Notes under the pieces: generated by a model
Database searches by the model: none
What the model saw: only the letters and a program-made list of their open reading frames with translations
Told to the model about the DNA's origin: nothing
Shown: positions 16,988 to 30,035 of the stretch, in pieces
Layout of the letters: each line of letters begins with the position of its first letter
How positions within the stretch are numbered: position 1 is the stretch's first letter
NCBI GenBank assembly: GCA_038060895.1
Contig: JBBTCT010000012.1
Location: 41,699 to 105,698, forward strand
DNA length: 64,000 nucleotides
Source of the DNA: Planctomycetota bacterium
GTDB lineage: Bacteria; Planctomycetota; MHYJ01; WSZJ01
Direction: 5' to 3'
Translations under genes and position numbers: made by a program

Positions 16988-17054
16988 GCGAGATCCTGTA
17001 GGGGGGTGGAGGGGGCGGGATGATAGCAGCGGGGGTTGGGAGGTGGGGGGGGGA

Positions 17055-17191
17055 AAACGGCAACAACGAAACGAAAAACTAAAAACGAAAAACTAAAAAC
17101 GAAAACCAATCCGAAACTCGGGCGTGGATTTTTCGCGGCTGTTCTTTTCGTTTTTCGTTTTTTCTTTTTCGTTTTTCGTTTTCTTGCTGCC
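17055..17191. repeat. AT-rich inverted element of 7-nt units (AAAAACG / CGTTTTT), copy 1
   Basis: Left arm 17055-17105, 39-nt spacer, right arm 17145-17191; the left arm is 49/51 identical to the reverse complement of 54997-55047. Confidence 0.9.
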
Positions 17192-17266
17192 CTTTTTCTC
17201 TCCCGCGGATTCCTCCTTCGCCAAGCCCCACATAATCGGTATTGTGCCGCCATTCCGGAGGACTCG

Positions 17267-20110
17267 ATGGCCGACAAAAAACTTCACGTCACTTGTGCCT
17301 GTGGCCAGACCCTTGCTTTCCGCCCCGAGCAGGCAGGCGGGCGCTTCCGCTGTCCCGCTTGCAAGGAACCGCTCGACCTGACGGCTCCGGGCGACCGCGA
17401 GACGGATCCCGAACCTCCGCGGTCGGCGGCGCGGGGAGCGACGCCGAAGAGGCCGGGGTCGGGATTTACAGCACGTCCTCCGGCGGGCGCCCCCTCGCGT
17501 CCGGGCGCGGGATCGGGACTGACGTCGCGGCGAAGGCCGCCGGCAGAGGAAGAGGCGGCGGAGGAAGAAGCGCCGGCCAGCTCGAGGGGAAGAAGCGGGA
17601 TGTCCACGCGCGGCCGCGGAACGCCGGCGGCGCAAGCCGTGCCGGCGGAGCCTGTGTCGCCGGAAGCGGCCCGCAAGAAGAAGATCATGATCATCGCGGG
17701 AGGCGGCGGGGTGCTCGTGCTCCTTCTCGTCATCGTCGGCGTCATCGCTCTGAAGGGCCCGGGAAAACCCGAGAACGCGGGAAAGATCAGCGAGGGTACG
17801 GAAGTCTGGAAGACTCTGGCGGACGGTTTTCGAATCGCGGAGAAGCAGGATGAGATTCCGGCGCGCGATGCGGCTTACAAGAAGTCCCTCGACGCGATCG
17901 AGGGGACGCGGACGCTTCACGACTACGGCTGGCCCGACTTCTTCAAGGGCCGCGCGCTGTCGCGCATGGGAAAGTATGACGACGCCAAGGCGGCGTTCGC
18001 GGCCGCGATCGAAAAGCTCGACAAGGGCGCGCAGAATTACGCGAAGATCGAGCGCGGCCTGATCGCCGGACGCCGGCAGCTCGAAAGCCTGCTCCGCTCA
18101 CGGCGCTTCCGCGCCGGCGGCGTCTCGCTCGCGCCCGACGCAGCGGCGGAGGAAGCCGGGAAGGCCGCGATCCCGGACCTGAAACTGGCGGACTCGACCA
18201 AGGAAACGGCGTTCTTCCCGTCGTCGCTCCTCGCGCTCGCGCAGGCGGAGGCCGACCGGATCGACGGCCGTCCTTCCGCGGCGATCGGAAGGTACGAAAC
18301 GGCGTCGAGCTCGCAGTCGGTGGCCGGCTACGCGCAGGCGGCGATCGGCGGGCTGTACTACGAACTCGACAAGTGGGAACTCGGGATGAAGTCGATGGAA
18401 GCGGCGCTCGAAGCGGATCACGGGTCGGGTCTCGCGCGGCTCTCGACGGCGTGGGGTCTGCGGCGGCGGGCGCTGGCCGACATGACGAACAAGGACGCGC
18501 TCGCGTGGCTCGACCGCGCCATTGAAAATGCAGACAAGGCTGCATCGGAAGGGCATCCCGCAGGACCGGCGGCGTCGGCGTGCCTCCGGCTCGACCGCGC
18601 GACGGTGAAATTCGAAACCGGCGGCGATGGTCAGGCAGACCTCGACGACGCCTCGGCGAAGGCCGACGAAGCCGTTTCGAAGGACGCGGGCGACATCTCG
18701 GCGCAGGAAATCAAGGCGATGGCGGCGTTCCTGAAGGCGACGCGCGACGAGCGCGCCGGCAAGGACGTGTGTGCCGCGCTCGACGGCGCCATCAACGTGC
18801 TCAGTTCCATCGCGGGTGACGGCAAGGACTTCCCCGCCCTTCTCAATCGAGGCCGTGTGCTGCTGAAGCGCGCCCGCGCCGAGGCCGCGAAAAACCGCGA
18901 TGCGGGACCTTTCTACGAACGCGCGGCCAAGGACTTTGAATCCGTGCGCGGCAATGACGGGCCCAGCGGAGGCACGATCGAGCCGTTGCTCGGAAGCGCG
19001 ACGGCGCGTGTCGAGAAGGCGATCGAGGACTCGAAGAAAGGCACGGATTCGAGCGCCGTGTTCGAAAAGGTCATCAAGGAAATGACCGCGGTCATCAACC
19101 AGTACCCGAACCGCCTGCAGGCGCTGGAAGCGCGCGGCCTCGCGAGGTGGGCGCTGAGCGACGCGTACAACAAGCAGGGGAAAACCGCCGAGGCCAACAA
19201 AGCCCTGGACGAGGCGCTCACCGATCTCGACCAGCTCTTCACCAAAATCCCGTCTTACCGGGTCGGTGAAATCCTCGTTGATGCCTGGATCGCGCAGGGC
19301 GAGGCCAACATCAAGGCCGACATCAGCCCGCGCGGGCCGTTCGACAACGCGTCGCGCCACATCGAGACGCTTCTCAAGATGTCCCCCAGCCTGCCGCTTC
19401 AGATGCGCCGCGGGAAGGCGCTCGTCCGCTCCGCCGATTTCTCGCTGAAGAAGAAGGAAGACCCCCGCATCCAGCTGACGACCGCGGTCGGCGACTTCAG
19501 CGCGGTCCTGAACGCCCAGCCCGACAACATCGACGCCCTCTGGGAACGCGGACGTGCACTCTTCCTCATCGGCAAGGCCGAACAGGCGGCGCAGCAGGAT
19601 TCGCGCATCAACCTGAACGGGGCCATCCGCGACCTCGAGTCGCTCCTGAAGAAGGATCCCAGTCACAAGCAGGCGGCCTTCACCTGCGCCGACGCGGTCT
19701 TCTACATGGCCCAGGTTGACTTCCTGCGCGGAAACGACCCGCTCGACACCCTGAGCCGGGCGGTCGGGATGTTCGAAATGGCCGTGAAGCTCGACGACAA
19801 GAACCCGGAGACCTGGAACGGGCTGGGGAACGCCTGGCTGGTGACTGCGGAAGCGTCGCGACGGGCCGCGAAAGAGTACTCGCTGGCGCTGGAAAAGTCG
19901 GAGGAGGCCTACACGAAGTCGATCAGCATGGAGTACTGGAAGTCACTGATGAACATGGGGATTGTGAAGGCGTATCAGCTCAAGTTTGCCGAGGCTGAGG
20001 CCTTGTGGGACGACGCCGCGGCCAAGTGCCCCGAGAAAGCAGCGGAAATCGAGGGCACGAGGAAGTGGTACCGGGAGATGAAAGACCGTCTGAAGGATCC
20101 CGCGAAATAG
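17267..20110 (+). CDS. Zn-ribbon / linker / TM / long TPR-repeat protein
   Basis: GGAGG RBS before ATG 17267; CACG...CPAC zinc knuckle, Pro/Arg/Gly linker, one TM, ~750 aa of TPR-like helices. Confidence 0.85.
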   Translation: MADKKLHVTCACGQTLAFRPEQAGGRFRCPACKEPLDLTAPGDRETDPEPPRSAARGATPKRPGSGFTARPPAGAPSRPGAGSGLTSRRRPPAEEEAAEEEAPASSRGRSGMSTRGRGTPAAQAVPAEPVSPEAARKKKIMIIAGGGGVLVLLLVIVGVIALKGPGKPENAGKISEGTEVWKTLADGFRIAEKQDEIPARDAAYKKSLDAIEGTRTLHDYGWPDFFKGRALSRMGKYDDAKAAFAAAIEKLDKGAQNYAKIERGLIAGRRQLESLLRSRRFRAGGVSLAPDAAAEEAGKAAIPDLKLADSTKETAFFPSSLLALAQAEADRIDGRPSAAIGRYETASSSQSVAGYAQAAIGGLYYELDKWELGMKSMEAALEADHGSGLARLSTAWGLRRRALADMTNKDALAWLDRAIENADKAASEGHPAGPAASACLRLDRATVKFETGGDGQADLDDASAKADEAVSKDAGDISAQEIKAMAAFLKATRDERAGKDVCAALDGAINVLSSIAGDGKDFPALLNRGRVLLKRARAEAAKNRDAGPFYERAAKDFESVRGNDGPSGGTIEPLLGSATARVEKAIEDSKKGTDSSAVFEKVIKEMTAVINQYPNRLQALEARGLARWALSDAYNKQGKTAEANKALDEALTDLDQLFTKIPSYRVGEILVDAWIAQGEANIKADISPRGPFDNASRHIETLLKMSPSLPLQMRRGKALVRSADFSLKKKEDPRIQLTTAVGDFSAVLNAQPDNIDALWERGRALFLIGKAEQAAQQDSRINLNGAIRDLESLLKKDPSHKQAAFTCADAVFYMAQVDFLRGNDPLDTLSRAVGMFEMAVKLDDKNPETWNGLGNAWLVTAEASRRAAKEYSLALEKSEEAYTKSISMEYWKSLMNMGIVKAYQLKFAEAEALWDDAAAKCPEKAAEIEGTRKWYREMKDRLKDPAK

Positions 20111-21394
20111 CTAGAGAGCGCGAAAGGCAGCCGAGGCAGAGCGCACGACGTCGCCGAGCATTCGGCTCGTGTGGGCGGTTGAAATGAACGCCGCCTCGAA
20201 CTGCGACGGGGCGAGCATGACGCCGCGGTCGAGCATGGCGTGGAAGAAGCGCGCGTAGCGTTTCGTGTCGCTTCGGGCCGCGGAGGCCCAGTCGGTGACG
20301 GGGCCGTCCTGGAAAAATGCGGTGGCCATGGAGCCGACGGCGTTGATGACGAGCGGGACCCGGGCGCTTCGTGCGGCGTCCCCGAGCGCATCGCCGAACG
20401 CGCGCATCCGCGACGCGAGGTCGCGGTAGAGGCCCTTCCTGCGGAGAAGGCGGATCGTCGCGAGCCCGGCGGCGACGGCGCACGGGTTTCCCGAGAGCGT
20501 CCCGGCCTGGTAGACCGGGCCATCGGGGGCAACGAGCGCCATGATGTCCGCGCGACCGCCGTAGGCCGCGAGCGGGAGGCCGCCGCCGACGATCTTGCCC
20601 AGCGTTGTCAGGTCGGGCCGGACGCCGAAGAGCGCCTGCGCGCCGCCGATGCCGACGCGGAATCCGGTGATGACCTCGTCGAAGACGAGGAGTGCTCCCC
20701 AGCTGTCGCAGAGCCGGCGAAGGCCGGGCAGGAAATTGGGCTCGGGTGGGACGACGCCCATGTTGCCCGCGACCGGTTCGATGACGACGGCCGCGATGCG
20801 CTTCCCGCGTCTGCGGAACAGCGTCTCCACGCTCTTCAGGCTGTTGTACTGCGCCGTGAGCGTCAGCGCCGCGACCGCGCTCGGCACGCCGGCGCTCGCC
20901 GGGATCCCGAGCGTCGCGAGCCCGCTCCCGCCCTTCGAAAGAAACCCGTCTGCATGCCCGTGATACCCGCCCTCGAACTTCACGATCAGGTCGCGCTTCG
21001 TGAACCCTCGCGCCACGCGCACCGCGCTCATCACCGCTTCCGTCCCGCTCGACACCAGCCGCAGCTTCTGCATCGAAGGCATCGAAAGCCGGATTTCTTC
21101 CGCGAGTTCCGTCTCCGCCGCCGTCGGTGCGCCGAACGTCGAGCCGTTCGCGGCCGCGCGCGCGATTGCACGGACGACCTTCGGGTGCGCGTGCCCCAGG
21201 ATCAGCGGGCCCCACGACCCCACGAAGTCCACGTAGCGGTTGCCGTCCGCGTCCCAGACGTGCGGGCCGCGGCCGCGGGCGAGGAAGCGGGGCGTTCCGC
21301 CGACGGAACGGAAGGCGCGCACCGGCGAATTCACGCCTCCGGGAAGCATGCGGCGGGCGAGGGCGAAGAGGGCGACGCTGGTCTTCGTTTTCAT
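20111..21394 (-). CDS. hemL: Glutamate-1-semialdehyde 2,1-aminomutase
   Basis: PGGVNSPVRAF, SSGTEA, FDEVITGFR, LGKIVGGGLP, YQAGTLSGNP, PSQFEA. Confidence 0.97.
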   Translation of the reverse strand: MKTKTSVALFALARRMLPGGVNSPVRAFRSVGGTPRFLARGRGPHVWDADGNRYVDFVGSWGPLILGHAHPKVVRAIARAAANGSTFGAPTAAETELAEEIRLSMPSMQKLRLVSSGTEAVMSAVRVARGFTKRDLIVKFEGGYHGHADGFLSKGGSGLATLGIPASAGVPSAVAALTLTAQYNSLKSVETLFRRRGKRIAAVVIEPVAGNMGVVPPEPNFLPGLRRLCDSWGALLVFDEVITGFRVGIGGAQALFGVRPDLTTLGKIVGGGLPLAAYGGRADIMALVAPDGPVYQAGTLSGNPCAVAAGLATIRLLRRKGLYRDLASRMRAFGDALGDAARSARVPLVINAVGSMATAFFQDGPVTDWASAARSDTKRYARFFHAMLDRGVMLAPSQFEAAFISTAHTSRMLGDVVRSASAAFRAL

Positions 21395-21450: not shown

Positions 21451-22428
21451 TCAACGCACGATCGCCGCAACCAGGAGGAAGTAGATGAGAATGCTCAGGA
21501 TGTCCTGAATGACGGTCGCGAAGGGACCCGAGCCGTACGCGGGGTCGCGGCCGGCTTTCGCGAGTCCCCACGGGAGGAGGAGTCCGACCGACGCTGCGAC
21601 GGTGCTGGCGCACGCGAGGCTCAGGGAAACGGCGGCGGCAAGCCGGAGATCTTTCCACAGCATCGCCACGAGGCCGAAGGCCAGGCCGCCGAGGACCGCC
21701 CCGATGATGGCGCCGGACATGATTTCGCCCATGAGCAGGCGGCGGAGCCCGATTCGCGAAAGCGACAACCCGCGCACCGCAATCGCCTCGGCCTGCGTCC
21801 CGATCGCATCCGCGAGGTAGACGATCGCGGGGACGAAAAAGGCGATGACGACGCGCGTATCCAGGGTTTTCTCAAAGCGCGACATCACGAAGGTCGCCAG
21901 GACGCTCCCGGCGAAACCGACGAGAAGCCACGGCAGGCGGTGCCAGACTTGCCGGGTCGGAGGCTCTTCCAGCGCATCCCTGGCATGCATGACTTCCCTG
22001 TTGATGCCGGCGAGCCTGTGCAGGTCTTCCGCGTGCTCGCGGTAGAGAATCTCCATCAGCGTGCCGGCGGGCACGACTCCGGCGAGACGGCCGTCAGGTT
22101 CGAGAACGGGAGTCGAAGCCAGGCCGTGGCGAAGAGCGGCGTGGGCCAGGCGCTCCTGGTCGGTGCCACGCCCCGCCTTGGGGATGTCGCGGGTCATGAG
22201 GTCGGAGATTCGGGTCCCTGCCCGGGCAGAGAGAAGGGTGTGCATCGGCACGACACCCTCAAGCAGGTCGCCGGTGCTGACGACGTAAACGGCGTCGGCC
22301 AGTTCCCACGAGCCTCCTGCCAGCCGATGCGCAACGGCGAGGGCGTCTTCGGTCCCGGCCGCCCTGGGGACGGAAGTCACCATGTGGGACTCGGCGCGTT
22401 CCCGGCGCAAAACGTGATTCGGGGTCAA
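21451..22428 (-). CDS. mgtE: Magnesium transporter MgtE (CBS pair plus TM domain, no N domain)
   Basis: CBS pair, RLPWLLVG, GTQ, DPAYGSGPFATVIQD. Confidence 0.9.
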   Translation of the reverse strand: MTPNHVLRRERAESHMVTSVPRAAGTEDALAVAHRLAGGSWELADAVYVVSTGDLLEGVVPMHTLLSARAGTRISDLMTRDIPKAGRGTDQERLAHAALRHGLASTPVLEPDGRLAGVVPAGTLMEILYREHAEDLHRLAGINREVMHARDALEEPPTRQVWHRLPWLLVGFAGSVLATFVMSRFEKTLDTRVVIAFFVPAIVYLADAIGTQAEAIAVRGLSLSRIGLRRLLMGEIMSGAIIGAVLGGLAFGLVAMLWKDLRLAAAVSLSLACASTVAASVGLLLPWGLAKAGRDPAYGSGPFATVIQDILSILIYFLLVAAIVR

Positions 22429-22528
22429 GGGTCGGCTCCCAGAGAGGAAAGTGGAAAGCAGAGTATCCGCGCGGATACGGCAGGGACGTGAAGGATTCGC
22501 TTCCTCGCGGATTCCCCCCGGGCGCGCG

Positions 22529-22544
22529 CGGCACGTCCGTTGCG
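22529..22544 (+). promoter_or_regulatory. sigma54 (-24/-12) promoter of the VIT-vWA gene
   Basis: cGGCACgtccgTTGCg: GG 22530-31 and GC 22542-43 with the canonical 10-nt spacing; predicted +1 about 22555, two nt before ATG 22557. Confidence 0.7.
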
Positions 22545-22556
22545 TTCCGGCACTTC

Positions 22557-24686
22557 ATGCGAAACCACACCCTCATCCTGTTGGCTGCCGTTGCCGCCTC
22601 CCTCCTCTTCCCGCGCACCGCCCATTCCTGATGGGTCTACACGGAGCGACCCGGGGAGGTCGAGTTGCGCGAGACGCACGCGAAGATGTCGATCCGGGAG
22701 GACGTTGCGGAGAAGAGGCTCCGGATGAAGTTTCACAACACGGGGAGCGGGGCGAACACGGAAGCGACGTTCTTCATGGAGCTGGAGCCGGACCAGCGGG
22801 TGGAGAGCTTTTCGGTGACGATCGACGGGAAAACGGCCGAGGGAGAGATCCTGGACGCGGAAAAAGCGCGCAAAATCTACGAGGGAATCGTCGCGAAGCA
22901 GAAGGACCCGGCGCTTCTCGAGTATTACGGAGCGCGTCTCCTGCGTGTACGCATCTTTCCTGTCCCTGCGAACGCGGACTTCGAGGTCGAGATCAGGACG
23001 ATCGAAGCGCTGCGGTCCCAGGGCGGCCTGGTGCGCGTGAACACGCTCAACGCGGTTCCGGCTTCGTTCCGCAAGCCGCTGAAAACGATGACGGTCGAAG
23101 CGACGATCGAGTCTTCGAAGCCGCTGAAGGCGGTTTTCTCGCCGACGCACGACATCGTGGCCGCGCGCACGGGGCCGCGCGCGATGAAGCTGACCTACTC
23201 GCGGCAGGACTACTTTCCCGCGGGGCCGTTCGTCTTCTATTACCAGGCGAGCGAGGAAGCGTTCGGCGCGGCGGTGCTGGCGTTCGAGGAGCCTGGCGAG
23301 GATGGCGCGTTCATGATCACGATCGCGCCTCCCGCCGACGGAACGGCCGGCGAGCGCCTTCCGCGCGACATCGTCTTCGCGCTCGACACGTCGGGGAGCA
23401 TGCTGCAGGGCGACAAGATCGGGCAGGTGCGCAAAGCCCTCGCGGCCTTCGTCGAGACGCTGACCGACAAGGACCGCTTCAATATCATCACGTTCTCCAC
23501 GGAAGCCCGGGCCTGGCGCGAATCCCTGGTGACGGCGACTGCGGAAGCAAAAGCGGCCGGCGTCTCGGCGGCCAACTCGCTCAACGCGCGCGGCGGAGCG
23601 GCGATCGAGGACGCGCTCAAGCTGGCGCTCGCGCAATCGTTCCGGCCTGACGCGACGAAGATCGTGGTCTTCCTGACAGACGGCACGCCGACCATCGGCG
23701 AGCGGGACGACGAAGCGCTCCTGAAGATCGCCCGCGGGCGCGGCGTCCGCGTCTTCGCCTTCGGCGCGGGATTCGACCTGAACACTCGCCTCCTTGACCG
23801 CCTCGCGATCGAGAACGGAGGCGACCGGCAGTACATCCATCCCAACGAGAATGCAACCGAGGTCCTTGCCAGCTTCGCAAAACGAATCGATGCGCCGCTT
23901 CTGGCCGACCCCGTTCTGAAATTTGCGGGCGTCGAAGGAAGCGCGGAAGTGACCGACGTGCAGCCGAAGAAGCTCCCCGATATTTTCCAGGGTGGCTCGG
24001 TCGTGGTCACAGGACGCTTCAAGGGAAAAGGGGCGCGTCGGATCGAGCTGAGCGGAACGGCGGGTCGGGAGACCCGGTCCGTGTCCTACACGCTCGATTT
24101 CGCTTCCGAACCGCGAAACGACTTCGTGCCGCGCCTGTGGGCGATCCAGCGGATCGACTTCCTGCTCGACGAAATCCGGACAAGGGGCGCTTCGAAGGAA
24201 CTTGCCGAGGAGATCGTGCGTCTCTCGAAGAGATACGGGGTCGTCACGCCGTACACGGCGGGGCTGATCACGGAGGATGTTCCGGTGACGGCGGCGGGGA
24301 TCGAGAGGCGTGTGGGGCAGTCGGCCGGCGCGAACTACAACGGGCAGCAGGAGTGGGAGCTGGGGCGCAACCAGCAGGAGTGGCGTGGAGCGTACAACCA
24401 GGAGCGGCAGCAGCTGGCCGCCAACGGAGCGCTGGGCCGCGGGAACGACGCGAACGCGCAGGCCGAGCTGATGAACCGGCAGCGCAACGTGGGCAACCGG
24501 GCGTTCTACAACCGGGGCGGGGCGTGGCAGGAGAGCGGCTACGAGGCGCAGGTCGCGCGGACGCTGAAGTTCGGGACGGAGGAGTACTTCGAATTCCTGA
24601 GAAACAACGACGGCGCAGGCGCTGTGCTCGCGCTCGGTCGCAACATTACGTTCAGGCTCGGGTCCGAATGGATCCGGGTCGAGTGA
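22557..24686 (+). CDS. Secreted VIT + vWA domain protein (ITIH-like) with in-frame TGA at codon 25; candidate selenoprotein
   Basis: ATG 22557 gives signal peptide MRNHTLILLAAVAASLLFPRTAHS, then TGA, then WVYTERPGEVEL in frame with the 22665 ORF; VIT (DPALLEY) and vWA (DTSGS, LTDG) motifs are intact. The CDS is well supported; the Sec reading is inference. Confidence 0.8.
22632..22678 (+). promoter_or_regulatory. Candidate bacterial SECIS hairpin
   Basis: Upper stem CGACC/GGTCG (22647-51/22658-62), loop CGGGGA starting 21 nt after the UGA, possible lower pairing GTCT/AGAC. Confidence 0.5.
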
Positions 24687-24697
24687 GGAGAAGAGTC

Positions 24698-25804
24698 ATG
24701 AAAAGGTTCCTGGCAGTGGCACTGGCGCTCGCGGCGGCCATCCCGGCGCGCGCCGAAGAGAAGGTCAAGCTCGGCGAAGTCGACGTCGTTTTCTGCATCG
24801 ACAGGTCCGGCAGCATGGACCAGGTGATCGACACGGCAAAACAGAAGATCTGGGGGATCGTCAACGACATCGCGAAAGTCCGGCCGACGCCAGTGCTCCG
24901 CATCGGGCTCATCGGTTACGGCTCGGGCAACACCGATTTCCGCTTCTTCGACCTGACCGATGACCTCGACACCGTCTATTCCAATCTCATGACGTTCAGG
25001 ACGGACATGGGCGGCGACGAATGGGTCGGCGCTGTGATCCAGAAGGCGACGAAAGAAATGAAGTGGAGCAAGAACAAGGAGGCGCTTCGCATGATCTTCG
25101 CCGTCGGAAACGAGACGGCGATGCAGGGGCGCGAGGATCTGCTCTATCCGAAGACGGTTCCCGAAGCGATCAAGGCTGACATCGTCGTGAACGCCATCTA
25201 CTGCGGACAACCGAATGCCGACGAAGAGCGGACATGGCGCGAGGTCGCGAAGCTCGCCGACGGCTCTTACACGGTCATCGACATCACCGGCGGCGCGATC
25301 ACGATCGCAACGCCGATGGACGAGGAGATGTCGAAGCTCAACGAGGCGCTCAACAAGACGTACATCGCCTACGGCCACAAGGGCAAAGACGGGCTCAGAC
25401 AGCAGGAAGAACAGGACAGAAACTCCTCGGATAACGGCGGCGCTTCCAATGGCGCCCAGCGTGCCGAGGCGAAGTCATCCGGGGTCTACAACAACTCGAG
25501 CTGGGACATGGTGGATGCGTGCAAGGGCAAAGACTTCAAGATCGAGGACGTCAAGGACGAAGACCTGCCCGAGAACATGCGGAAGATGACGCTCGACGAG
25601 AAAAAGGCCTACATCGCCACCATGAAGGCCGAGCGCGAGAAGATCCAGAAGGAAGTCCAGGCGAAGGCGGTCGAGCGGCAGAAGTACATCGACGCCGAGA
25701 TCAAGAGCAAGGGGCTGACGCAGGACAAGGCGTTCGACGAGGCCGTGCGCAAGATGGTGCGGGAGCAGGCGGAGAAGAAGGGGTTTGAAGTGGGTAAGGA
25801 GTAA
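24698..25804 (+). CDS. Secreted vWA domain protein, paralog 1
   Basis: Signal peptide ARA-EE; MIDAS DRSGS; C-terminal coiled coil; GAGGAG RBS. Confidence 0.9.
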   Translation: MKRFLAVALALAAAIPARAEEKVKLGEVDVVFCIDRSGSMDQVIDTAKQKIWGIVNDIAKVRPTPVLRIGLIGYGSGNTDFRFFDLTDDLDTVYSNLMTFRTDMGGDEWVGAVIQKATKEMKWSKNKEALRMIFAVGNETAMQGREDLLYPKTVPEAIKADIVVNAIYCGQPNADEERTWREVAKLADGSYTVIDITGGAITIATPMDEEMSKLNEALNKTYIAYGHKGKDGLRQQEEQDRNSSDNGGASNGAQRAEAKSSGVYNNSSWDMVDACKGKDFKIEDVKDEDLPENMRKMTLDEKKAYIATMKAEREKIQKEVQAKAVERQKYIDAEIKSKGLTQDKAFDEAVRKMVREQAEKKGFEVGKE

Positions 25805-25977: not shown

Positions 25978-27090
25978 ATGAAGACGAAGATGTTTGCAGC
26001 CATCGCCCTTGCGCTCGCGGCCGGACTTCCGGCCCGTGCCGAAGAGGAAAAGAAACCTGGCGAGGTCGACGTGGTCATCTGCATCGACCGCTCCGGAAGC
26101 ATGCAGCAGGTCATCGACACGGCCAAGCAGAAGGTCTGGTCGATCGTCAACGACATCGCCAAGGTCCGGCCGACGCCCGTGCTGCGGATCGGCCTCGTTG
26201 GGTACGGCTCCGGCGACCGCGAGTTCCGCTTCTTCGACCTCACCGACGACCTCGACACCGTTTACAAGAACCTCATGACCTTCAAGACGGACATGGGCGG
26301 CGACGAGTGGGTCGGCGCCACGGTCCGCAAGGCCACGAAGGACATGACGTGGAGCAAGAACAAGGAAGCGCTTCGGGTGATCTTCATGGTCGGCAACGAG
26401 ACCGCGCACCAGGGAACGGAAGAGAACATGTACACGAAGACGGTCCCGGAGGCGATCAAGGCGGACATCATCGTGAACGCGATCTACTGCGGGAAGCCGA
26501 ACGCGGATGAGGAGCGGACGTGGCGCGAGGTGGCGAAGCTCGCCGACGGCTCCTTCACGACGATCGACATCTCCGGCGGCGCAGTCGCGATCGCGACGCC
26601 GATGGACGCCGACATGGCGAAGATGAACGAGGAGCTGAACAAGACCTACGTCGCGTTCGGCGAACGCGGCCGAGAGAAGAAGGACAACCAGAAGGCGCAG
26701 GACGCTGCGGCGGGCGAAGCGGGCGGTGGCGGCGTGGTCGCCGAGCGCGCGGCCGCGAAGGCCTCGGGCGCCTACAACAACAGCGGCTGGGACCTCGTGG
26801 ACGCGTCGAAGAACAAGGACTTCAAGCTCGAGGACGTGAAGGACGAAAACCTTCCCGAGGAGATGCGCAAGATGTCCCTCGAGGAGAAGAAGGCTCACGT
26901 CGCGAAGATGGCCGCCGAGCGCGAGAAGATCCAGAAGGAGCTGCAGGCCAAGGCCGCCGAGCGCGCGAAGTTCATCGAGGACGAAATGAAAAAGCAGGGC
27001 CTGAACCAGGACAAGGCGTTCGACGAAGCCATGCGCAAGATGATCCGCGAGCAGGCGGCGAAGAAGGGGATGGAGATCGGTAAGGAGTAG
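25978..27090 (+). CDS. Secreted vWA domain protein, paralog 2
   Basis: Signal peptide ARA-EE; DRSGS MIDAS; colinear with and highly similar to 24698-25804; GAGGAG RBS. Confidence 0.9.
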   Translation: MKTKMFAAIALALAAGLPARAEEEKKPGEVDVVICIDRSGSMQQVIDTAKQKVWSIVNDIAKVRPTPVLRIGLVGYGSGDREFRFFDLTDDLDTVYKNLMTFKTDMGGDEWVGATVRKATKDMTWSKNKEALRVIFMVGNETAHQGTEENMYTKTVPEAIKADIIVNAIYCGKPNADEERTWREVAKLADGSFTTIDISGGAVAIATPMDADMAKMNEELNKTYVAFGERGREKKDNQKAQDAAAGEAGGGGVVAERAAAKASGAYNNSGWDLVDASKNKDFKLEDVKDENLPEEMRKMSLEEKKAHVAKMAAEREKIQKELQAKAAERAKFIEDEMKKQGLNQDKAFDEAMRKMIREQAAKKGMEIGKE

Positions 27091-27172: not shown

Positions 27173-27823
27173 TCAATGTGTGACGGCGGCCCTCCGCGGG
27201 CCCTTGCGTCCCGTCTCCCTGCGCAGCAGCCGGAACGCTGCGTTCCGCGGAATGCGCTTCCATCCCCGGAGGTTCCGCCCCACGCCCGAAATCCGGGGGT
27301 GCGTCATGAGGCAGACGACCTCATCTGCCAGCGGTTGCAGAAGCTCGACGGCCCGGTCGGTCCCGGCCATCGCGACGGCAACGAGCCGCACCGCGCCGCG
27401 GTCACGCAGACTGGTCAAGGCAGCCCGCATACGGGCGCCTGAAGAGACGACGTCCGCGACGACGATGACGACCCTCCCCAGCACTTCGGGAAGAGCGCAC
27501 CCGGGCAGGAACTGGACCCGCTGCGCCAGCATGTAGGACAGGCACTGGACGATCCGGCCGGCGAATTCTTGCTCCGCCCCGTCGTCCGCGCTTCCGGAAT
27601 CGAGCACGATCTCGCCGGTCTCAGCGACGGCACCGCGATAGCCGCCAGAGACAAGGCTCTCGGCCTGGACGATGTCGAACCCGCCGCCGAGCCACTGCGC
27701 GATGGCTTGGGCAATCGGGACGCCCCCCGGCGTAAGCCCGAGAACGATCGGATGCTCCGCCCGGTATTTCGCCAGCCGGACGCCGAGGGCACGGCCGATT
27801 TCTTCGACGTGGCGGGTGTCCAT
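27173..27823 (-). CDS. Phosphoribosyltransferase-like protein with degenerate PRPP motif
   Basis: PIVLGL..GGVPIA, GAVAE, ADEVVCL family motifs; VIVVADVVSSGA in place of VxxVDDGxATG. Confidence 0.75.
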   Translation of the reverse strand: MDTRHVEEIGRALGVRLAKYRAEHPIVLGLTPGGVPIAQAIAQWLGGGFDIVQAESLVSGGYRGAVAETGEIVLDSGSADDGAEQEFAGRIVQCLSYMLAQRVQFLPGCALPEVLGRVVIVVADVVSSGARMRAALTSLRDRGAVRLVAVAMAGTDRAVELLQPLADEVVCLMTHPRISGVGRNLRGWKRIPRNAAFRLLRRETGRKGPRRAAVTH

Positions 27824-27868
27824 GAGGGATGCCTTTCGAAAAGCGAGGGAAGCGGGCGCAACGTTCTT

Positions 27869-27884
27869 TGCAAGCCTGATGCCG
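27869..27884 (-). promoter_or_regulatory. sigma54 promoter for the PRT-like gene
   Basis: Minus strand cGGCATcaggcTTGCa with GG-N10-GC spacing, about 45 nt upstream of the start. Confidence 0.55.
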
Positions 27885-28148
27885 AGTGCATCGCCGGAGG
27901 CAAGCCCGGAACCTGCGTGAAATTCCCCGCGTGCCGGGCGGATTCTCCCGCCGGGAAAGTCATGGTGCACCACGAGCGTTTGCTTCTTGCGAAGACCCTG
28001 CAAAGGTCTGCCGAATTCGGACGCGTCATTTCAGCCGCGACCCTGCGCTGGATTTGCCGCCTGTTGACCCGAAGTTCATGCAAGCCGAACAGTCGTGTCG
28101 CAGACTTCCCTCGAAACGAATCGGAGACCCCACGTGGGCAACAGACTC

Positions 28149-30035
28149 ATGGAAGAAGAACTGGCCGTGTCCACATCGCATCCTGAACCCGCCGAGATCG
28201 CCACCCTCCTCAACGACCTCGAGCGGACCCGACTGGAACTGGTCGACCTGGAAATCCGTGAGAAGAACCTAGTCGAGGAAGTGCATCCCGCCCACCGGCG
28301 CTCGGCCAGGAACCTGCTTCACTATCTCGGGTTCCGTCGCCGGGACGCCCGACACTTCCAGCCGCGGCTGGCCGAACTCGGGCTGTCGTCGCTGGGGAGG
28401 GCGGAAGCGCACGTCCTGGCGACGATCGACGCGGTCCTTGCAAACCTGCACCGGCTCGCCGGCTCCGTGTCGTGCCCCTCGGCACCGCCTTCGACGCCCG
28501 TCGGGTACCGGGAAGGGACAGCCCTTCTGGAATTGCACGCGGATCAACTCTTCGGCCCCTGCGCCGGGCGCACGGTGCGGATCATGGTGACGATGCCCTC
28601 GGAAGCGGCGGAGGACTACCCTCTTGTGCGCGACCTGGTCGCGGGCGGGATGGACGTCATGCGGATCAATTGCGCGCACGATGGACCGAGGGAATGGGAA
28701 CGGATGGTGGTCCATCTTCACCGCGCGCGTCGCGAACTCGGTCGCGTTTGCCGCATCCTCATGGACCTGGGCGGCCCGAAACTGCGCACGGGGTCGATCG
28801 CGCGTGGGCCTGAGGTTCTCAAGTGGCGCCCGCAGCGCGATGTCTTCGGGCGCGTGACCATGCCCGCGCGCGTATGGCTCACCTCCCAGGAAGCACCCGC
28901 GCCCCCCCTGCCGGGCACGGACGCGACGCTTCCGGTACCGGCCGATTGGCTCAAGACCCTCAAGAAGGGCAACCGGGTGACCTTCAAGGACGCGCGTGGC
29001 GCGAGCCGCGCCCTGAGAATCGTGTCGGAGGTCGGCGAAGGCCGCTGGGCGGAATGCGGTGAGACGGCCTACGTGGTGTCGGGCACCCAGCTGAAAATCG
29101 CGAGCGGGAAGCGCGGCGGCGAAGCGGCGGTTGGCCGCCTCCCGGCAGTTGAGCAGGCGCTTCAACTCCGCCGTGGCGACACCCTGGTCGTCACCCGGCG
29201 GGATGACCCGGGGCTGCCTGCCGAACGCGACGCGCGCGGCGTGCTGGTCAGCCCGGCGACGATCTCCTGCACTCTTCCCGAGGTCTTCGCCGACGTGCGG
29301 CCCGGGGAACGGATCTGGTTCGACGACGGGCGGATCGGAGGCATCGTGAGATTCGTGAACTCCGACCAGATGCACGTCGAGATCGTCCAGGCGCGCCTGC
29401 GCGGCGAGACGCTGAAAGCGGACAAGGGGATCAACCTGCCCGACAGCACGCTCCGCCTGCCCTCCCTCACGGCACGCGATATCGAGGACCTCCCGTTCGT
29501 CGCCCGCCGCGCGGACATGGTGGGCTATTCCTTCGTTCGGGAACCGTCGGACGTGGCGACCCTTCAGGAGCACCTCGCGAAAGCCGGCGGCGAGAATCTC
29601 GGCCTCGTCCTCAAGATCGAGACCCGCGCGGCCTTCGAGAAACTCCCCCACCTGCTCCTTGCCGCCATGCGCAGTCCCAGCGTCGCCGTCATGATCGCCC
29701 GCGGCGACCTCGCCGTGGAAATGGGGTACGAGCGGCTGGCGGAGGTGCAGGAAGAGATCCTCTGGATCTGCGAGGCCGCGCACGTCCCCGTCATCTGGGC
29801 GACGCAGGTCCTTGAGTCGCTCGCAAAGGACGGCGTCCCCTCACGTGCCGAGATCACCGACGCCGCCATGGGGGAGCGCGCCGAGTGCGTCATGCTCAAC
29901 AAGGGCGCCCACGTGCTCGAGGCGCTTCGCGTCCTCAACGACATCCTCCTGCGCATGCAGGGGCACCTGAACAAGAAGAGCCCGGTGCTGCGTCAGCTCC
30001 GGCTTGCCCGGGACGTCCTGGCGACAAAGGAATGA
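28149..30035 (+). CDS. pyk: Pyruvate kinase (long variant)
   Basis: RINCAH, DLGGPKLRTG, KGINLP, LKIET, ARGDL, WATQVLE, SRAEITD, CVMLNKG; start ATG 28149 or GTG 28167. Confidence 0.92.
   Translation: MEEELAVSTSHPEPAEIATLLNDLERTRLELVDLEIREKNLVEEVHPAHRRSARNLLHYLGFRRRDARHFQPRLAELGLSSLGRAEAHVLATIDAVLANLHRLAGSVSCPSAPPSTPVGYREGTALLELHADQLFGPCAGRTVRIMVTMPSEAAEDYPLVRDLVAGGMDVMRINCAHDGPREWERMVVHLHRARRELGRVCRILMDLGGPKLRTGSIARGPEVLKWRPQRDVFGRVTMPARVWLTSQEAPAPPLPGTDATLPVPADWLKTLKKGNRVTFKDARGASRALRIVSEVGEGRWAECGETAYVVSGTQLKIASGKRGGEAAVGRLPAVEQALQLRRGDTLVVTRRDDPGLPAERDARGVLVSPATISCTLPEVFADVRPGERIWFDDGRIGGIVRFVNSDQMHVEIVQARLRGETLKADKGINLPDSTLRLPSLTARDIEDLPFVARRADMVGYSFVREPSDVATLQEHLAKAGGENLGLVLKIETRAAFEKLPHLLLAAMRSPSVAVMIARGDLAVEMGYERLAEVQEEILWICEAAHVPVIWATQVLESLAKDGVPSRAEITDAAMGERAECVMLNKGAHVLEALRVLNDILLRMQGHLNKKSPVLRQLRLARDVLATKE

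Follow-up and report, generated by a model that had tools for sequence, protein, structure and literature searches.

Is the TGA triplet that interrupts a reading frame in the genome of a Planctomycetota bacterium the end of a gene, a recent mutation, or a codon for selenocysteine (Sec)? The frame lies in a 64,000-nucleotide (nt) stretch of DNA, here called the window (GenBank assembly GCA_038060895.1, contig JBBTCT010000012.1, positions 41,699 to 105,698 of the forward strand). The source assembly (G000) has 5.4 Mb in 47 contigs and is 86.5% complete, and the window is located on its contig C12. We propose, with a probability of roughly 80%, that the product of the gene at 22557-24686 is an exported protein resembling the inter-alpha-trypsin inhibitor heavy chains (ITIH), with a VIT domain followed by a von Willebrand factor A (VWA) domain, and that UGA at codon 25 is read as Sec by SelA, SelB, SelD and tRNA-Sec, helped by a stem-loop located 20-27 nt downstream. 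Judged by its sequence, this VIT-vWA gene of a groundwater planctomycete most likely represents a selenoprotein family that is absent from the current catalogue. The gene is organized as follows:

22530-22543, plus strand: sigma54-type -24/-12 element, GGCACG-N4-TTGC, seen in the sequence 13 nt before the ATG
22557-22628, plus strand: start codon and predicted 24-codon signal peptide of the Sec export pathway (MRNH..., with P-R-T-A-H-S as c-region)
22629-22631, plus strand: in-frame TGA seen in the sequence, the proposed Sec codon (precursor residue 25, predicted mature residue 1)
22632-24683, plus strand: rest of the mature chain, 684 codons, with a flexible N-terminal tail, VIT, VWA and C-terminal domains
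22647-22662, plus strand: candidate bacterial Sec insertion sequence (SECIS) hairpin seen in the sequence, CGACC-CGGGGA-GGTCG, with a stem of 5 bp and a 6-nt loop
22665-22997, plus strand: VIT domain, residues 37-147 (Pfam PF08487, 75.3 bits, over the cut-off)
23367-23855, plus strand: VWA domain, residues 271-433 (Pfam PF00092, 76.1 bits, over the cut-off)
23385-23399, plus strand: D-x-S-x-S metal-site motif of the VWA domain, residues 277-281, intact
24684-24686, plus strand: ordinary TGA stop of the VIT-vWA gene, seen in the sequence

An earlier, sequence-only reading of the window had noticed that the frame assigned to TTG 22665 runs back to ATG 22557 through a single TGA, and the sequence confirms this. 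The 24 codons preceding the TGA, MRNHTLILLAAVAASLLFPRTAHS, have a basic n-region and a hydrophobic core and, as that reading had described, end in A-x-S at -3/-1. Beyond codon 25 there is no further disruption: the frame is open to the stop at 24684-24686 and carries the VIT and VWA domains, in agreement with the earlier statement that the rest of the gene shows no decay. The gene ends in an ordinary TGA, and this codon is therefore not reassigned genome-wide. The 684 codons of the mature chain contain neither a Cys codon nor a redox motif.

A lone in-frame stop near the 5' end resembles a fresh nonsense mutation, and such a mutation was the alternative that had been raised together with the Sec interpretation. 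We collected orthologs by searches of related genomes, a species-genome collection and metagenome contigs, which gave ten distinct orthologs with DNA (G000, G002, G006, G009 (same as L050), L051 (same as G433), L060, L061, L062, G432 and G430). TGA was present at the aligned position in all ten, which have 53-84% identity, and was never replaced by TAA or TAG. In each case it was preceded by an in-frame, signal-peptide-like open reading frame (ORF) of 21-25 codons and followed by [W/R/I]-x-x-x-E-x-[P/A]-G-x-V-E-L-[R/L]-E-T-H. The ratio of nonsynonymous to synonymous substitution rates (dN/dS) between the two closest orthologs, G000 and G002, was 0.148 when the whole mature chain was compared and 0.113 in its first 40 codons, which argues that the gene still works. 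The TGA was also found in independent assemblies, namely a 9193-nt contig from run X2 (another sample), which differs from the window at a single position (22709), and a 246-nt contig from run X3 (another study), which spans 22422-22667 with zero differences. A conserved TGA, a dN/dS of 0.15 and the independent assemblies exclude a nonsense mutation, a pseudogene and an assembly error, and the chance we would still give to any of these is negligible. The ortholog clade itself is small and patchy: its members were found in 8 of the 56 genomes of the class and in 4 of 401 genomes sampled across the phylum.

Conservation of the codon could also be explained by genuine termination at UGA. In that case the 24-codon ORF would encode a separate leader peptide, and a VIT-vWA protein lacking a signal peptide would be made from TTG 22665 or ATG 22686. 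Gene prediction favors this view. In the ORF list of the window, the gene begins at TTG 22665, where the VIT domain starts. In a protein search, for which the best 120 of 1215 matches were examined, the ortholog group comprised 29 clusters at 45% identity or above, and 21 of them were gene calls starting downstream of the Sec position; Met at residue 44 was common. Six of the 21 N-truncated clusters are contained in DNA-verified genes; for the other 15, TGA was inferred from the truncated gene calls alone. However, TTG 22665 is replaced by CTG or CTC in other orthologs and is thus not a conserved start, and both P0013 and P0019 lack Met at residue 44. The Pfam VIT domain starts upstream of the next ATG (22686), and the stretch of 18 codons from UGA to Met44, which is part of this domain, is conserved at the protein level. 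In addition, the same signal peptide is joined to the protein in a single uninterrupted ORF in the non-Sec orthologs, and the paralogs are all exported proteins. The signal peptides of the orthologs are strongly diverged, yet retain their basic start, hydrophobic core and small -3/-1 residues. These in-frame, diverged signal peptides, the lack of a conserved TTG start and the position of the VIT domain imply that the upstream ORF belongs to the gene, as do the dN/dS values of both regions and the occurrence of a sigma54 element 13-14 nt from the ATG in 8 of the 10 orthologs. Termination at codon 25 is therefore very improbable.

Translation through UGA as Sec is further suggested by relatives that carry Cys. 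Among the full-length ortholog clusters, the Sec position was occupied by Q (P0017), I, G, C (P0029 and P0030), S or D, and P0032 was ambiguous. A quick maximum-likelihood tree of 50 rows, with Shimodaira-Hasegawa-like approximate likelihood ratio test (SH-aLRT) support and a midpoint root, contained a 26-row crown clade (100% SH-aLRT) consisting of the eight Sec forms then known, the 15 truncated calls and nested Q, I and G forms. Outside this clade were the S and D forms and then the two Cys forms, the basal P0029 and P0030, which read A↓C-W-V-H at the site. The sister clade had A↓C-F-M in all 10 rows, and paralogs in the source and related genomes had A-x-A↓C at 15 loci. More distant subfamilies start with D-G or A-G and continue with hydrophobic residues. 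Rooted at the midpoint, the tree suggests that Cys may have come first, that Sec replaced it in the crown clade and that a few replacements occurred later. Cys in some genomes and TGA plus a hairpin in others is what the sequence-only reading had proposed to look for, and this is what was observed: Cys in the two basal members and all ten sister rows, TGA in all ten orthologs, and a hairpin of -9.4 kcal/mol or better in 8 of them. The Gln form, P0017, is the gene of genome G425 (L075, G425:C61); it has CAG instead of TGA, its hairpin is gone, and it can be regarded as a natural Sec-loss variant.

The complete machinery for Sec insertion was identified in the source genome, another check that had been suggested. 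The tRNA-Sec gene (selC, 71.7 bits) was called SeC with anticodon tca by ARAGORN; selA (541 bits), selB (310.7 bits, plus a C-terminal piece) and selD (364 bits, with its own in-frame TGA) were present as well, and all four genes scored over their curated cut-offs. Across the ortholog-bearing genomes that could be searched, tRNA-Sec was found in 7 of 7 and selA over its cut-off in 6 of 7, the seventh (G430) having a fragment at a contig end. Sec appears to be widely used in the source organism, whose genome looks selenoprotein-rich, with at least ten other TGA-interrupted redox genes. Nine of the 30 matches to the AhpC/TSA family had one in-frame TGA at the position of the redox motif (e.g., W-U-G-P-C), and a gene for an FdhA-like molybdopterin oxidoreductase had TGA within R-T-U-H-A-P-S. 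Examples of such Sec-candidate loci outside the window are:

G000 C35:63339-63698, C1:336891-337241, C15:157690-158046, C12:129596-129952 and C2:208314-208889

Separately, a thioredoxin-fold candidate selenoprotein with a W-U-G-G-C motif was observed in two near-identical copies (G000 C34:53368-53550 and C34:61242-61412), which are 8 kb apart and have an identical hairpin. In the ortholog search of related genomes, two further matches with one TGA, G022:C82 and G034:C6, turned out to be ordinary stops at gene ends.

The bacterial SECIS (bSECIS) model, as given in a 2026 review, has a loop of 3-9 nt, a stem of 4-16 bp, a G at loop position 1 or 2, a distance of 16-37 nt from UGA and a minimum free energy of -7.5 kcal/mol or lower (PMC13188914). 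We scanned for hairpins by these rules, using ungapped stems only. In 8 of the 10 Sec orthologs, the hairpin GGGGCUC-GUN-GAGCUCC was found 27 nt past UGA, with 7-10 bp, a GUC, GUA or GUG loop and energies of -9.4 to -17.6 kcal/mol, within every limit of the model. An energy of -11.8 was reached at 1.6% of approximately 4000 random positions of the source genome. Among 15 homologs with a Cys codon, only one had a hairpin at this place that reached -5.9. The ortholog hairpin resembles those of other Sec genes in the source genome: 3 of its 11 other candidate Sec genes have a G+C stem with a GUC cap, and two more have GGUC(U). The hairpin of the window itself, at 22647-22662, has a loop that begins 20 nt past UGA with G at its second position, and its energy is -5.9 kcal/mol bare and -7.2 with flanking bases. 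Its strength is comparable to that of the weakest hairpins among the genome's other Sec candidates, at -5.6 (one peroxiredoxin-like gene) and -7.4 (selD).

Several observations weigh against the proposed Sec insertion. The loop, stem, G position and spacing of the window hairpin fit the bSECIS model, whereas its bare energy of -5.9 is weaker than -7.5. Such an energy was reached at 16% of the random positions, so the window hairpin alone is not beyond chance, and the 52-nt fold of 22629-22680 gave z = -0.86, with 35 of 200 shuffled sequences folding as well. The hairpin described in the sequence-only reading is thus present, with G at loop position 2, but taken by itself it is no better than chance. 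The hairpin common to the other orthologs is disrupted in G000 and G002, where Leu has been replaced by Glu (CUC to GAG), and just the 5-bp hairpin remains there. The stems are invariant among orthologs and consequently offer no covariation or compensatory changes. Synonymous sites in the first 17 codons were not unusually conserved (rank 51 of 200 windows), and an Rfam scan of 22450-22850, with E-values up to 10, returned no SECIS element, only a chance match to a long noncoding RNA. With regard to the residue, Q, I, G, S and D occupy the position elsewhere in the ortholog clade, so it is not indispensable, which is unusual for a catalytic Sec, and the G425 genome keeps selA and tRNA-Sec despite Gln at this position. 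The lack of a redox motif and of any other Cys in the mature chain likewise counts against a Sec protein. In the AlphaFold2 model (38-row alignment, mean predicted local distance difference test (pLDDT) score 86.7, predicted template modeling score 0.88), mature residues 1-5 have pLDDT below 50 and the first strand begins at residue 11. Few alignment rows cover this tail, and the low pLDDT may partly reflect thin coverage. Finally, contigs from two RNA libraries of one sample match just 23069-23272 and 24038-24280 and do not include the TGA; these contigs are no proof of transcription.

A weak hairpin in the window and the many residues tolerated in relatives would both fit readthrough of UGA by a tRNA other than tRNA-Sec, either a near-cognate Trp or Cys tRNA or a suppressor, placing an ordinary residue in the protein. 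This is difficult to reconcile with a full Sec system and many other Sec genes in the same genome, with TGA rather than TAA or TAG in all ten orthologs, with the SECIS-type hairpin of the lineage in 8 of them, and with the use of TGA as the normal stop of the VIT-vWA gene itself. We consider such readthrough unlikely. The usual features by which a bacterial selenoprotein is predicted computationally are all present, except for the energy threshold of the window's own hairpin. The claim that UGA in this VIT-vWA protein is read as Sec is supported by the conserved TGA, the sel genes, the Cys relatives and the ortholog hairpins, and none of the refuting outcomes named in the sequence-only reading was observed.

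If Sec is inserted, its location next to the signal peptide raises the question of how the protein is processed. Cys directly after a signal peptide is a hallmark of bacterial lipoproteins, whose lipobox has the consensus L-[AS]-[GA]-C. Sec could accordingly stand in place of the lipidated Cys, and the protein would be anchored to the membrane by a diacylglyceryl selenoether. A Cys or Sec immediately following the signal peptide is lipoprotein-like, and residue -1 is S, A or G in all ten orthologs. However, every one of the 10 Sec forms, like most of the Cys relatives, has polar or charged residues at -2 to -4, preceded by P-R or D; in the Sec forms these are H, F, E, D, R or P-R, which do not match the lipobox. 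Such residues suit the c-region and the -3/-1 rule of signal peptidase I. The -3/-1 motif, judged by eye in all ten orthologs, reads A-H-S, A-F-A, A-E-G, A-D-A, S-R-A or S-D-A from -3 to -1. A seleno-lipoprotein thus has only a slight chance of being correct, and a predicted cut by signal peptidase I immediately before Sec is the processing that we favor.

The sigma54 element noted earlier as GG-N10-GC is present in the window as GGCACG-N4-TTGC, and the source genome encodes rpoN (334 bits). A GGCACG-N4-[T/C]TGC element occurs 13-14 nt from the ATG in 8 of the 10 Sec orthologs; it was found near the start in the window, L052, L058, L050, L060, L061, L062 and L076. The usual geometry of sigma54 promoters fixes the start site relative to the -24/-12 element. 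By this geometry, the transcript is predicted to start approximately 2 nt before AUG, giving a leaderless or nearly leaderless mRNA, and AUG 22557 would be the only start available. The two orthologs without the element closely follow another ORF and have GGAGG 6-10 nt before ATG. In the Gln form L075, the sigma54 element is further upstream, and a Shine-Dalgarno sequence is present in the 5' untranslated region.

From the computed features (the conserved TGA, signal peptide, hairpin, Sec machinery and Cys relatives), we infer the following course of expression. The sigma54 promoter would yield an mRNA beginning almost at AUG, whose translation would first produce the 24-residue signal peptide. 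The hairpin would then recruit SelB-GTP-Sec-tRNA, and Sec would be inserted at UGA. After export, signal peptidase I would probably cut after A-x-S, leaving Sec as mature residue 1 on a flexible tail.

The genes around the VIT-vWA gene are as follows:

17036-20110, plus strand: TPR protein
20111-21394, minus strand: class-III aminotransferase
21451-22428, minus strand: MgtE-like divalent-cation transporter with a CBS domain, oriented divergently to the VIT-vWA gene
24698-25804, plus strand: operon partner 1, a secreted 368-residue VWA protein with a charged helical C-terminus, beginning 12 nt past the stop
25978-27090, plus strand: operon partner 2, 74% identical to partner 1 and its tandem paralog, with a signal-peptide-like start
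27173-28003, minus strand: phosphoribosyltransferase
28095-30035, plus strand: protein with a pyruvate-kinase barrel domain

As had been stated, both neighboring VWA genes have signal-peptide-like starts; both are downstream, and the upstream neighbor is the MgtE-like gene on the other strand. With partner 2 as query, a secreted VWA protein of approximately 365 residues was found directly downstream in 8 of 8 orthologous loci examined, and the source genome has no further copy beyond the tandem pair. The MgtE query gave no match at seven other orthologous loci (1.5 kb flank each). Both partners combine a D-R-S-G-S metal site with a C-terminus that is long, charged and helical, and their Pfam VWA matches are weak. 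A free Cys of the downstream VWA partner was considered as an Se-S partner of the proposed Sec and rejected: only two of its Cys residues are invariant, both located in VWA strands, and a third is not conserved.

The closest matches of known structure to the VIT-vWA protein are ITIH proteins. The best PDB sequence matches were ITIH4 (E-value 2.8e-44) and ITIH1 (4e-24), and the top fold match was ITIH1 (6fpy, E-value 3e-34, approximately 590 columns). ITIH1 and ITIH4 share with the window protein the order of VIT followed by VWA and an intact D-x-S-x-S motif, of which D277, S279 and S281 are invariant across four aligned orthologs. Unlike ITIH, the window protein is bacterial and has a Cys-free mature chain, a predicted N-terminal Sec and a different C-terminal region. 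No NCBIfam model reached its cut-off for this protein; the best match was TIGR03788, a marine proteobacterial sortase target with VIT-vWA architecture and an LPXTG-type signal, which gave 208 bits over residues 170-584, far under its curated cut-off of 551.65, and belongs to a different phylum.

Compared with known bacterial selenoprotein genes, such as fdhF, selD and those for Sec-containing peroxiredoxin-like or thioredoxin-like proteins, the gene is alike in that orthologs keep UGA, Cys relatives exist and a full sel set is present. Unlike them, the window protein has no UxxC or CxxU motif and no thioredoxin fold, the predicted Sec is at position +1 of a signal-peptidase site, and relatives carry Q, I, G, S and D besides Cys. 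As far as is known, the Sec of other exported selenoprotein families is internal, whereas in the window protein the proposed Sec adjoins the predicted cleavage site. A combination of signal peptide and Sec is also known from the exported substrate-binding proteins SaoB and SaoX, periplasmic formate dehydrogenase and FCYXU-type TonB receptors (bioRxiv 10.1101/2022.07.06.499078; PMC13188914), and for other exported families Table 1 of the review lists just a Sec motif (PMC13188914). A candidate stem-loop likewise follows UGA, within the 16-37 nt and with the G early in a small loop that the review gives for bSECIS elements (PMC13188914). The proposed Sec decoding is ordinary, and it is the placement of Sec and the protein context that are unusual.

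What could a Sec residue do at this place? The structural model would put it on a flexible tail of approximately 10 residues ahead of the VIT domain. That some orthologs have Q, I or G here, and related subfamilies Asp, speaks against a catalytic function for which the residue is indispensable and would be compatible with a ligand or handle function. Our best guess is that the N-terminal selenol may serve as a handle, reactive or metal-binding, that acts together with the VWA partner encoded downstream, which bears a metal-ion-dependent adhesion site (MIDAS). More specifically, and quite tentatively, cleavage could expose a free N-terminal Sec (a 1,2-aminoselenol) on the tail of an extracellular ITIH-like scaffold, where it would be not a redox site but either a soft-metal ligand for the MIDAS of the protein itself or its partner, or a nucleophile for covalent tethering; we regard this as possible rather than probable.

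With respect to novelty, Table 1 of the 2026 review contains 119 prokaryotic selenoprotein families or subfamilies (PMC13188914), and no VIT or VWA entry occurs in parts 1-2 of its catalogue section. The terms Willebrand, VWA, inter-alpha and signal peptide have no mention in the main texts of this review and of the deep-Sep paper (PMC12013277), whose supplements could list a VIT-vWA candidate. Within the catalogue families covered and the literature searched, we found no prior description of a VIT or VWA selenoprotein, and the earlier statement that none had been described holds to this extent.

The data also flag a systematic annotation error, in that 21 of the 29 ortholog clusters among the best 120 of 1215 matches were called without their signal peptide. 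The natural replacements of U by C, Q, I and G make this clade a good comparative system. N-terminal Sec is otherwise known as a product of synthesis for ligation; the mature protein, if our interpretation is correct, would carry a natural one. If the residue acts as a handle, this would be the first adhesion- or matrix-type selenoprotein and the first whose Sec becomes functional upon removal of a signal peptide. For the organism, having UGA as early as codon 25 in a leaderless sigma54 transcript would tie the output of the whole operon to selenium supply, with failed decoding being nearly cost-free. For selenoproteins in general, Sec at the extreme N-terminus of an exported, Cys-free VIT-vWA scaffold would widen the known uses of this amino acid.

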